64,000 nt of DNA from Escherichia coli. GTDB taxonomy: Bacteria; Pseudomonadota; Gammaproteobacteria; Enterobacterales; Enterobacteriaceae. A program made the position numbers and the translations under genes. The first letter of the stretch is position 1, and each line of letters begins with the position of its first letter. This document shows, one piece after another, positions 2,495 through 4,573 of the stretch. Location of the stretch: the NCBI RefSeq assembly GCF_050320075.1, contig NZ_CP190018.1; one strand, given 5' to 3'. Below the pieces are notes generated by a model that was not told where the DNA came from, ran no database searches, and saw only the letters and a program-made list of their open reading frames with translations.

Positions 2495-3190
2495 ATGTTC
2501 AGAAAATTAGCAGCTGAATGTTTTGGTACTTTCTGGCTTGTTTTTGGTGGCTGTGGTAGTGCCGTACTGGCCGCAGGCTTCCCGGAATTAGGCATTGGTT
2601 TTGCCGGCGTGGCGCTGGCATTCGGTCTGACCGTTCTGACGATGGCCTTTGCTGTTGGTCATATTTCTGGTGGTCATTTTAACCCGGCGGTCACTATTGG
2701 TTTATGGGCTGGCGGACGTTTCCCGGCAAAAGAAGTCGTTGGCTACGTAATTGCCCAGGTTGTCGGCGGTATTGTTGCGGCGGCGCTGCTGTATTTAATT
2801 GCCAGTGGTAAAACGGGTTTTGACGCGGCAGCCAGCGGTTTTGCTTCTAACGGTTATGGCGAGCATTCGCCAGGCGATTATTCCATGCTTTCCGCGCTGG
2901 TAGTTGAACTGGTATTGAGTGCAGGTTTCCTGCTGGTGATCCACGGCGCAACCGACAAATTCGCTCCTGCTGGTTTTGCGCCGATCGCTATTGGTCTGGC
3001 CTTAACCCTGATTCACTTAATCAGTATTCCGGTGACTAACACTTCTGTTAACCCGGCGCGCAGCACCGCGGTTGCTATCTTCCAGGGCGGCTGGGCGTTA
3101 GAACAACTGTGGTTCTTCTGGGTGGTGCCAATTGTCGGCGGTATTATCGGTGGTCTGATTTACCGGACTCTACTGGAAAAGCGTAATTAA
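2495..3190 (+). CDS. aqpZ: Aquaporin Z water channel
   Basis: 231-aa product from ATG 2495 (track ORF starts at upstream GTG 2489); two NPA motifs ([14 protein letters not shown]); RBS GAGGTGG upstream. Confidence 0.95.
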
Positions 3191-3198
3191 TTAACGCA

Positions 3199-3229
3199 GA
3201 AGGCCTGGCGCAATGTCAGGCCTTTTTTA
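3199..3229 (+). terminator. Rho-independent terminator of aqpZ
   Basis: GC hairpin AGGCCTG-N8-CAGGCCT followed by TTTTTT directly after the aqpZ stop. Confidence 0.8.
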
Positions 3230-3289
3230 AATATATTGATTCATCTTCCTGTTGCGCTCCTTGATGTGTTAAGCCACATATAGTCACTG

Positions 3290-3500
3290 GCGCAGGGAGC
3301 GCGCAGGGGGCGGCCAATCGCCGCCGCCCCCTGCACCCCCGGGCTCTGGCGAACAAAATCGCCGCTGCGCGGTGCCCTCGACTTATCCCTTACGGCTACC
3401 GGGTCGGGCGCGAGGTAACATCCCTGTAAAACGCGCCCTCAGCCCACATCCATGTGGGCTGCCCCGGCCTTCAGGGAACGCCTCGGCGATTTTGACGCCA
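3290..3500. repeat. GC-rich palindromic intergenic element (possible REP/BIME-like or small MITE-like repeat)
   Basis: Perfect 12-bp stem GCAGGGGGCGGC/GCCGCCCCCTGC (3303-3331, 5-nt loop); perfect 10-bp palindrome CAGCCCACAT/ATGTGGGCTG (3440-3461); imperfect long-range inverted repeat GGCGAACAAAATCGCCG (3348-3364) vs CGGCGATTTTGACGCC (3484-3499); G+C far above the neighbouring intergenic DNA. Confidence 0.45.
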
Positions 3501-3673
3501 CCAACACCGGTGCGGTTTGTAATTAAAGCGCAAGAATATCTTTAAATGAAAATGAATACCCTACCGATCCTTATGCATAACATTTCCTTTTAATTGCAAC
3601 TTTACTCGTCCTTCCGCTTTCAGTAGTGTGTCATCGCGCATTTCGACTTCATCTTTGCAAGGACTGGGTTTTC

Positions 3674-4573
3674 ATGTTTTCTGGGCTGTTAATCATTCTG
3701 GTTCCCCTGATTGTGGGTTACCTCATTCCTCTTCGCCAAAAAGCTGCATTAAGAGTTATTAATCAGCTATTAAGCTGGATGGTTTACCTCATTCTCTTTT
3801 TTATGGGTATCAGTCTGGCGTTTCTCGATAACCTCGCCAGTAACCTGTTGGCGATTCTGCATTATTCCGCCGTCAGCATTACCATTATTTTACTCTGCAA
3901 TATTATTGCGTTGTTGTGGCTGGAGCGCGGTCTGCCGTGGCGCAACCACCACCAGCAAGAAAAACTCCCGTCGCGTATTGCGATGGCGCTGGAGTCGCTA
4001 AAACTGTGCGGCGTAGTAGTGATTGGTTTTGCCATTGGCCTGAGTGGACTGGCTTTCTTACAACATGCGACCGAAGCCAGTGAATACACCTTAATTCTGC
4101 TACTTTTCCTCGTCGGTATTCAGTTGCGCAATAATGGCATGACCTTAAAGCAGATTGTCCTTAATCGCCGGGGAATGATTGTCGCCGTGGTGGTGGTTGC
4201 CAGTTCATTAATTGGTGGTTTAATTAACGCCTTTATTCTTGATCTTCCCATCAATACCGCGCTGGCAATGGCCTCTGGTTTCGGCTGGTATTCTCTTTCC
4301 GGTATTTTATTGACTGAATCTTTTGGTCCGGTAATCGGGAGCGCGGCGTTTTTTAATGATCTGGCCCGTGAGCTGATTGCAATTATGTTGATCCCTGGGC
4401 TGATTCGCCGCAGCCGCTCTACCGCACTGGGCTTATGCGGTGCGACGTCGATGGATTTCACCCTGCCCGTTCTTCAACGTACTGGCGGGCTGGATATGGT
4501 CCCGGCGGCAATTGTTCACGGTTTTATTCTTAGCCTGTTAGTGCCGATCCTCATCGCCTTTTTCTCTGCGTAA
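3674..4573 (+). CDS. ybjE: Inner-membrane L-lysine exporter LysO (YbjE)
   Basis: 299-aa polytopic membrane protein from ATG 3674 (track ORF extended to 3626); synteny between aqpZ and hcp. Confidence 0.85.
   Translation: MFSGLLIILVPLIVGYLIPLRQKAALRVINQLLSWMVYLILFFMGISLAFLDNLASNLLAILHYSAVSITIILLCNIIALLWLERGLPWRNHHQQEKLPSRIAMALESLKLCGVVVIGFAIGLSGLAFLQHATEASEYTLILLLFLVGIQLRNNGMTLKQIVLNRRGMIVAVVVVASSLIGGLINAFILDLPINTALAMASGFGWYSLSGILLTESFGPVIGSAAFFNDLARELIAIMLIPGLIRRSRSTALGLCGATSMDFTLPVLQRTGGLDMVPAAIVHGFILSLLVPILIAFFSA

Follow-up and report, generated by a model that had tools for sequence, protein, structure and literature searches.

A GC-rich palindromic element in the aqpZ-lysO spacer of Escherichia coli: the known TRIP1a/RRS-lysO repeat, with a conserved fold of its G-rich strand

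The aqpZ-lysO spacer and its palindromic element

The stretch of Escherichia coli DNA analysed here, 64,000 nucleotides of contig NZ_CP190018.1 (assembly GCF_050320075.1) and hereafter called the window, carries a GC-rich palindromic block in the spacer between aqpZ and lysO (ybjE), two genes read on the plus strand (Table 1). A sequence-only reading of the window had placed about 200 bp of G+C-rich DNA past the aqpZ terminator, as was indeed found: the G+C fraction is 0.62-0.72 at 3250-3500 (in 100-nt windows) against 0.35-0.46 in both flanks, and the terminator hairpin (3200-3224) lies upstream of it. The element reaches beyond the interval 3290-3500 described in that reading, to approximately 3251-3515, and RefSeq has zero annotated features under it. 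This block is TRIP1a, which is also RRS-lysO, and we consider it highly probable that the published lagging-strand gap mechanism of RRS-lysO belongs to it.

The TRIP1 family was described by Rudd (1999) and re-surveyed by Li et al. (2024), who distinguished types TRIP1a-e. According to the latter, TRIP1a is 266 bp long, starts 70 bp past the aqpZ stop codon and ends 158 bp ahead of the ybjE start codon, and these lengths (70 + 266 + 158 = 494 bp) add up to that of the K-12 aqpZ-lysO spacer. In the window, the right edge of the element at 3515 lies 158 bp from the lysO ATG at 3674, as published, whereas the left distance is 60 bp instead of 70 bp because a 10-bp stretch of the K-12 spacer is absent in this strain. 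The same repeat was termed replication risk sequence (RRS) in studies by Pham, Cox, Goodman and colleagues that described RRS-lysO as a 222-bp GC-rich repeat beside lysO, with a partner repeat, RRS-dusC, beside dusC (Pham 2023/2024), and RRS was equated with TRIP1 (Pham 2024). The published RRS-lysO/TRIP1a was found to align to 3251-3515 in the identity check, and BLAST returned the aqpZ-lysO spacer, over the full 251-nt query, at 97.6% identity in K-12 strains and at up to 100% in other listed strains. The aqpZ-lysO element is already described and experimentally characterised, and its identity as such is not new; the annotation value is small, since the name dates from 1999 and the replication phenotype from 2023-2024, and TRIP1a/RRS-lysO is a suitable label, the more so as sequence scans can be expected to come upon this unannotated repeat again and again.

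The three hairpin or repeat structures of the element are real and well beyond chance. The perfect 12-bp stem noticed in the sequence-only reading was recovered, with arms GCAGGGGGCGGC and GCCGCCCCCTGC at 3303-3314 and 3323-3334; the loop (CAATCGCC) measures 8 nt rather than 5, and the hairpin ends at 3334 rather than 3331. The 10-bp palindrome, with arms CAGCCCACAT and ATGTGGGCTG, occupies the coordinates given for it (3440-3449 / 3452-3461). A long-range inverted repeat also exists and is best placed at 3354-3369 / 3479-3494, where 16 nt are 88% complementary, instead of at 3348-3364 / 3484-3499. In 2000 shuffles of 3290-3500 that preserved dinucleotides, perfect stems of 12 bp or longer arose with P = 0.0005 and those of 10 bp or longer with P = 0.0095.

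Folding, a check that the sequence-only reading had suggested, gave z-scores of -5.1 to -6.8 for the whole element (3251-3517), as RNA or DNA and on either strand, and 0 of 200 shuffles were as stable. The folds agree on three modules: modules A and B, each a hairpin (Table 1), and module C (3335-3516), in which a long closing stem, P1, encloses two hairpins. The G-rich strand is the more stable one, both as RNA (-147.8 versus -136.3 kcal/mol) and as DNA (-83.1 versus -79.6 kcal/mol); as a guide to the strand these energies are less informative than the wobble-pair asymmetry described below, the z-scores being similar on both strands.

Table 1. Features of the aqpZ-lysO spacer and its surroundings (positions in the window)
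Feature	Position	Strand	Evidence or remarks
aqpZ coding sequence, left neighbour	2495..3190	+	Open reading frame (ORF) list; aquaporin Z, 696 bp in the K-12 annotation of the homologous locus
aqpZ terminator: hairpin AAGGCCTG / CAGGCCTT, then T run	3200..3230 (hairpin 3200-3224)	+	Perfect 8-bp inverted repeat, 9-nt loop
Whole TRIP1a repeat	3251..3515	.	265 bp here vs 266 bp in K-12; block common to E. coli copies is 3251-3516/3517
Module A, outer hairpin, stem GCGCTCCTTG / CAGGGAGCGC	3254..3302	.	Inverted repeat; in all four minimum-free-energy folds
Block matching the published 222-bp RRS-lysO	3288..3510	.	Klebsiella and Raoultella copies align exactly there, 222-224 bp
Module B, perfect 12-bp hairpin, 8-nt loop	3303..3334	.	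P = 0.0005 in shuffles; kept via compensatory variants
Published RRS G-quadruplex-forming 20-mer GGGGGTGCAGGGGGCGGCGG	3321..3340	-	Exact match; sequence from Pham 2024
P1 (long closing stem of module C), left arm	3354..3369	.	16 nt, 88% complementary; covariation
Sub-threshold TwoAYGGAY (RF01731) match	3356..3495	-	30.6 bits, E = 0.013, gathering score 43, full model 1-168
Core hairpin 2: outer stem GGGCGCG/CGCGCCC, internal loop, inner stem, apex UUACAGGGAUGU	3406..3438	-	Sequence, folds, covariation in helices 6-8
Core hairpin 1, the 10-bp palindrome, apex CAUGGAUG	3440..3461	-	Inverted repeat; covariation in helix 5
P1, right arm	3479..3494	.	16 nt, 88% complementary to left arm; covariation
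Reported lysO (ybjE) constitutive promoter hexamers TTGACG / TGTAAT	3492-3497 / 3518-3523	+	Shimada 2014; positions read from the sequence
lysO (ybjE) coding sequence, right neighbour	3674..4573	+	ORF list; K-12: L-lysine exporter LysO, 900 bp

The G-rich strand and lagging-strand replication

The 20-mer GGGGGTGCAGGGGGCGGCGG, published as the G-quadruplex (G4) of RRS, has a single match in the window even when up to two mismatches are allowed. Each of the eight 8-kb bins of the window shows a negative GC skew of the plus strand, which makes the minus (G4) strand the lagging-strand template, as published; this orientation follows from the skew and not from mapped oriC and dif. The copy at dusC has a local skew of -0.047, negative like the skew of the window. 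The identity and position of the element, the G4 20-mer, its lagging-template orientation and the conserved multi-hairpin fold of the G-rich strand were all observed in this window.

In the published mechanism of RRS, the G-rich strand serves as lagging-strand template once the replication fork unwinds the element. This strand then folds stably, into a structure that the RRS authors attribute to a G-quadruplex at the 20-mer, and lagging-strand synthesis skips the folded element, leaving behind the fork a post-replication single-stranded gap of up to ~2 kb loaded with SSB and RecA. Polymerase blockage, gap formation in vivo and in vitro, loss of the RecA/SSB peak upon deletion, conditional essentiality and effects on supercoiling are taken from the literature.

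That literature comprises several lines of evidence. RRS-lysO and RRS-dusC were described as flanking the terminus (Ter) domain, ~650 kb from dif, as an inverted pair on opposite replichores. RecA and SSB were reported to peak on lagging-template single-stranded DNA (ssDNA) beside each RRS, and the peak was lost on deletion of that RRS (Pham 2023/2024). Furthermore, Pol I, II and IV copying the G-rich strand stopped at its G4 site (Pham 2024), and double deletion of the RRS repeats required a compensating amplification and altered global supercoiling (Pham et al.). In single-molecule replication assays, a gap was formed at nearly every passage of the replisome when the G4 strand was on the lagging template, with fewer gaps when the orientation was reversed (Kusi-Appauh et al. 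2026 preprint).

The TRIP1 family and the conservation of its fold

The sequence-only reading had suggested that the segment might belong to an extragenic repeat family and had proposed BLAST as a check for multiple copies. In a census of 5,426 complete E. coli genomes, the segment was found in 5,425, with a median of 3 places per genome (range 1-10), so that it is multi-copy and belongs to a named family, TRIP1, with further loci and genera; in 5383 of the genomes, 80% or more of the query is matched at one place with 90-100% identity. Other E. coli copies were recovered at putP-efeU, mdtQ-dusC and alx-sstT. Besides the aqpZ locus, Li et al. (2024) listed putP-ycdN, yohG-yohI (yohG being mdtQ and yohI dusC), alx-sstT and copA-ybaP, each E. 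coli TRIP1 type having its own fixed locus. The E. coli maximum of 10 BLAST places occurs in NZ_CP134663.1 (E. coli 64A:C, a gull isolate), a 4.9 Mb record labelled as a plasmid. One Klebsiella pneumoniae chromosome has 13 places, and no second copy was found within the 64-kb window.

A wider scan covered one genome per bacterial species with the degenerate pattern CCCT-N7-CATCCATG-N8-CCCGGCC and returned 113 stretches. From these, the window and the other loci retrieved, 123 copies were extracted, 120 of which are true relatives. They span at least 11 genera (Escherichia, Citrobacter, Enterobacter, Klebsiella, Raoultella, Leclercia, Silvania, Atlantibacter, Kluyvera, Pseudescherichia and Pseudocitrobacter). 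Copies with 84-89% identity to the E. coli element also occurred on contigs with non-enteric labels, namely two from metagenome-assembled genomes (MAGs) of Desulfacinum and Sporobacter termitidis and one of 583 bp and low coverage from Bacillus (L015, L096 and L111); they are probably enterobacterial contamination of these assemblies. The block common to all copies corresponds to 3355-3493 of the window, that is, the P1 arms and the two hairpins between them, and not the G4 module. Copies from the same genome are 87-98% identical to each other versus 72-79% to all other copies, which suggests lineage-specific amplification or homogenisation.

Gene context was counted for those copies, 75 in number, that are flanked on each side by a called long open reading frame. 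Convergent neighbours surround 39 of them, the two co-directional arrangements account for 16 and 15, and only 5 lie between divergent genes; thus, the repeat sits at gene 3' ends and has no strand preference relative to its neighbours. The element might be a cis-regulatory part of the adjoining genes, either a terminator or insulator of aqpZ or a promoter or leader of lysO. It lies ~20 bp past the T run of the aqpZ terminator, all five E. coli TRIP1 loci lie 38-96 bp past a stop codon (Li et al. 2024), and the -35 hexamer of the reported lysO promoter falls inside the right end of the repeat, so that the element may supply part of that promoter. The published ybjE promoter reads TTGACG-19-TGTAAT (Shimada 2014), and the spacer between the hexamers was counted here as 20 nt versus 19. 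Nevertheless, aqpZ has its own terminator upstream of the element, no Rfam cis-regulatory family was matched at threshold, the same sequence stands beside unrelated genes in both orientations, and one strain keeps aqpZ and lysO intact around an inverted, shortened element. We regard a cis-regulatory function as highly improbable. The more specific reading of a lysine riboswitch or leader of lysO was also considered and rejected, with no Rfam match and the same sequence occurring beside unrelated genes.

Several copies depart from the common arrangement. The strain just mentioned, E. coli Z1323HEC0475, carries at ~2822-3142 of our extract from NZ_CP148327.1 a TRIP1b-like short form that lacks the core and is inverted with respect to both genes; it joins the equivalents of window positions 3522->3462 to those of 3344->3250, and the rest of its spacer is unrelated. 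That record is labelled as a 42-kb plasmid, yet it carries the chromosomal genes hcr, hcp, lysO, aqpZ and ybjD. At alx-sstT, a ~430-bp allele of the spacer with TRIP1d (alignment A4; L003 2430-2860), present in ~1,668 of the 5,426 E. coli genomes, was aligned with unrelated alleles of 135 or 210 bp (L123, L124), which hold a different G-rich palindromic repeat (GGGGAGAGGGTTAGGGTGAGGGGAAC ... CCTCACCCCGACCCTCTCCC). In Citrobacter freundii p6_C (L008), two diverged copies lie head to head between torD and yeiP (1990-2150 and 2240-2440), with compensatory changes distinguishing their stems and with AGGGAU at each of the two apices of the second copy. Two inverted copies ~400 bp apart were seen at L024, and a second copy ~260 bp from the first at L094. 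Just past the putP-efeU copy (L004 2887-2923) there is a weak match to naRNA4, a nucleoid-associated RNA derived from repetitive extragenic palindromic (REP) sequences, at 28.5 bits with a gathering score of 59.5, which places a REP-like element next to that TRIP1 copy.

The sequence-only reading had also raised a small non-autonomous mobile element, and TRIP1 might on these data be mainly a selfish or once-mobile intergenic repeat, either akin to miniature inverted-repeat transposable elements (MITEs) or mobilised as ssDNA by a transposase acting in trans, with the replication effect a by-product co-opted at two loci. We judge this unlikely. It would agree with the copy numbers (1-10 in E. 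coli, up to 13 in K. pneumoniae), the unrelated loci in at least 11 genera, the high identity of same-genome copies, which fits recent amplification or concerted evolution, and the preference for gene 3' ends (39 of 75 convergent, 5 divergent), as in REP, enterobacterial repetitive intergenic consensus (ERIC) and MITE families. Both orientations, head-to-head and adjacent pairs, and the inverted short form at aqpZ-lysO itself also fit, and hairpins specific to one strand would suit transposition via ssDNA. However, no terminal inverted repeats were found, those present all lying inside the element rather than joining its ends at about 3251 and 3515, and each E. coli type keeps a fixed locus (Li et al. 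2024). When filled and empty alleles were compared at one locus, alx-sstT, the whole spacer proved to be replaced, so that no element boundary could be read there; neither a target duplication nor a clean empty site was found. A search of a phage collection gave no match, and the "plasmid" matches inspected hold chromosomal genes and appear to be pieces of chromosome or chromosomes under a wrong label, with no carriage on mobile DNA seen among them. To our knowledge, no transposase is associated with TRIP1. A retron or CRISPR-like reading was likewise rejected, as neither a reverse transcriptase nor an array is present.

The conservation of the fold was assessed on the minus strand in an alignment of 109 distinct core sequences (A3), for which RNAalifold predicted 36 pairs. 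Compensatory double changes occur in 22 of the 36, compared with 7-12 when the 3' partners were slid by 1-3 columns; standard pairs fill 97.4% of the cells versus 36-46% in the slid structures, and the covariation score is 0.382 versus 0.04-0.09. None of 500 column shuffles equalled the observed pairing or covariation score. P1 (helices 1-2) is paired in 96.6-98.7% of cells, with compensatory changes in 9 of 12 pairs, and the stem of hairpin 1 (helix 5) in 97.1%, with such changes in 6 of 8 pairs. Because the search pattern prescribed the CATCCATG apex and two flanking blocks, the invariance of these parts says nothing about conservation; the stems were free to vary. On the G-rich strand, G·U wobbles (75 cells in 19 pairs) far outnumber A·C mismatches (11 cells in 5 pairs), which indicates that the preserved fold is that of the G-rich (G4) strand, the one that has to fold in the published model. 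Conservation of this fold fits folded lagging-template DNA as well as RNA.

Outside the core, the stem of module B is kept in most of 112 copies through many compensatory variants, for instance TGTAAAGGGCGT/ACGCCCTTTACA and TGCAAGGGAGGC/GCCTCCCTTGCA, around a conserved, GGCG-rich loop; the stem is perfect over 10 bp or more in 78 of the 112, with both arms covarying.

At the level of the family, several observations are in tension with the published picture of RRS. The G4 20-mer, exact or with one mismatch, is present in only 33 of the 112 copies, and the two-hairpin core, unlike a strong G4, is retained in all copies. Covariation of the C-rich arm would be unexpected under a quadruplex alone and argues for selection on hairpins rather than on the quadruplex. 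The family is wider than the Ter-flanking pair, with up to 10 places in E. coli and 13 in K. pneumoniae. In K. pneumoniae ATCC 13883, six copies on one scaffold (at 0.83, 1.07, 1.14, 1.38, 2.18 and 4.24 Mb) are oriented + - - + + +, which makes a strict replichore rule impossible; the extra copies thus do not obey the lagging-strand rule. The putP copy, with a local skew of +0.10, is opposed in this respect to the copies at lysO and dusC. Across 71 copies the local skew is negative in 29 and positive in 42, without orientation bias; skew from 8-kb flanks is a noisy measure, giving +0.011 for the window's own copy versus a mean of ~-0.03 over the 64 kb, and shows only that no strong bias exists. 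Finally, topological relief at termination, or marking of the Ter macrodomain boundary, is a hypothesis of the RRS authors, and the biological role is to that extent hypothetical. The two repeats that flank Ter may be members of a broader family that were co-opted, and the family data bear on this question as well as on which structure stalls lagging-strand synthesis.

Likeness to TwoAYGGAY RNAs and comparison with known repeats

The Rfam scan suggested in the sequence-only reading gave no cis-regulatory family at threshold; the match of the element to TwoAYGGAY scored 30.6 bits against a gathering score of 43. Other copies match on the same strand and at the same position with 33.1, 30.9, 37.8 and 42.5 bits, the best being that of Citrobacter freundii (L122). 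Every score (30.6-42.5) falls below the cut-off, so the element was not placed in RF01731 and the resemblance was kept as a lead. TwoAYGGAY RNAs were defined by two terminal loops with AYGGAY and a P1 that is often very long (Weinberg et al. 2010). The element has a 16-nt closing stem backed by covariation; its terminal loops are AUGGAU in hairpin 1 and AGGGAU, which departs from the Y, in hairpin 2. At this second apex, AUGGAU occurs in Silvania, Leclercia and some Citrobacter copies, and Psychromonas seeds also have AGGGAC. The layout of the Psychromonas seeds is alike: the closing stem is followed by hairpin 1, which has CAUGGAUG at its apex, and a short linker leads on to hairpin 2 (outer stem, internal loop, inner stem) with apex CAGGGAYG or CAUGGAUG. 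In the supplement of Weinberg et al. (2010), the TwoAYGGAY seeds of Psychromonas ingrahamii (NC_008709.1) are near-identical dispersed copies with long shared flanks, so the "RNA motif" has the character of a repeat family in that genome, much like TRIP1 in enterics.

The sequence-only reading had listed a structured RNA among its possibilities, and the fold of the element is indeed backed by covariation. The core (3355-3493), or the whole element, could be a minus-strand structured RNA, an enterobacterial relative of TwoAYGGAY, with GGA apices that would be bound by a CsrA dimer; the RNA might serve as a decoy or sponge, or be part of a 3' untranslated region (3'-UTR). CsrA selects the consensus RUACARGGAUGU in systematic evolution of ligands by exponential enrichment, and the hairpin 2 apex UUACAGGGAUGU fits 11 of its 12 positions; in other genera this apex reads ACAUGGAUGU or ACA-GGAUGU. 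CsrA binding by TwoAYGGAY RNAs was proposed by Gardner and Eldai (2015), and TRIP1 was suggested to be a non-coding RNA by Li et al. (2024). The strong covariation and the excess of G·U over A·C on the minus strand agree with this view, and at the dusC locus the motif strand would be included in the transcript of the gene itself. On the other hand, G·T wobbles are tolerated in folded ssDNA too, so that the asymmetry is no proof of RNA, and the gap effect seen with a purified replisome needs no RNA. The motif strand is antisense to aqpZ and lysO here, and the 16 versus 15 co-directional copies reveal no consistent 3'-UTR strand, the orientation relative to genes being random. A consensus scan of 3100-3720 for promoters and terminators found nothing on either strand, and thus no sigma-70-like promoter, a negative result that is weak because the scan also missed the reported lysO promoter and the aqpZ terminator, which has a longer loop (9 nt) than the scan allows. 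Tables of CsrA crosslinking and immunoprecipitation list ybjE and dusC as "No", in rows at gene level only (Potts 2017), and a search of them for peaks at 914.2-914.5 kb gave no relevant entry, so that they are uninformative here. Taken together, we consider the RNA reading distinctly unlikely and prefer the TRIP1a/RRS-lysO element with its lagging-strand gap mechanism.

A related proposal concerns the conserved heart of TRIP1/RRS. This might be a TwoAYGGAY-type three-way junction with two CsrA-like GGA apices, and not a G-quadruplex, folded on the G-rich strand and maintained through compensatory changes in more than 100 distinct copies from at least 11 enterobacterial genera; we put this forward as a doubtful but testable lead. 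If it were true and the function were shared, either the RRS would also be CsrA-binding RNAs, or TwoAYGGAY motifs would really be structural or replication-gap repeats acting at the DNA level. This orphan motif, of which 216 members were reported from gut metagenomes, Clostridiales and gamma-proteobacteria, would also gain through the link its first relatives amenable to experiment.

Compared with known systems, the element shows no difference from TRIP1a of E. coli, with which it shares sequence, locus, length and G+C. With RRS-lysO it shares the 222-bp block at 3288-3510, the exact G4 20-mer and the placement of the G4 strand on the lagging-strand template. Relative to the TRIP1 survey of Li et al. 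(2024), the lower-stringency BLAST used here gives up to 10 places per E. coli genome, as against 0-5 copies there, and extends the family well outside E. coli. The searched text of Pham 2024 is silent on hairpins and CsrA, and the other RRS text consulted stresses the G4 and the Ter-flanking pair; in the survey presented here, by contrast, the part conserved across the family is the two-hairpin core together with hairpin B, a strong G4 is missing from many copies, and the additional copies have no consistent orientation relative to replication. In the RRS and TRIP1 text consulted, the common core (3355-3493), its TwoAYGGAY-like layout, its covariation and its wobble asymmetry are not mentioned.

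TwoAYGGAY shares with TRIP1 a closing stem, two adjacent hairpins with A-Y/G-GGA-Y apices, occurrence in gamma-proteobacteria and, in Psychromonas, the habit of a dispersed intergenic repeat, whereas TRIP1 differs in being GC-rich, in its extra modules A and B and in its second apex, AGGGAU. CsrB, CsrC and RsmX/Y/Z likewise present GGA at hairpin apices, and the two TRIP1 sites are 28 nt apart, a spacing compatible with one CsrA dimer. CsrB and CsrC have ~9-22 GGA sites; TRIP1, in contrast, has only two, no promoter was found for it in the scan of 3100-3720, and BarA/UvrY control of the CsrB type has no counterpart. Membership in REP/bacterial interspersed mosaic elements (BIME) or ERIC was rejected, as no sequence resemblance was visible by eye. 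REP/BIME and ERIC (also intergenic repeat units, IRU) are likewise GC-rich or palindromic, lie at gene 3' ends, can form cruciforms and have been implicated in chromosome topology, BIME-2 being linked with gyrase. Unlike these families, TRIP1 is longer, is present in far fewer copies and adopts a multi-domain fold with conserved loops.

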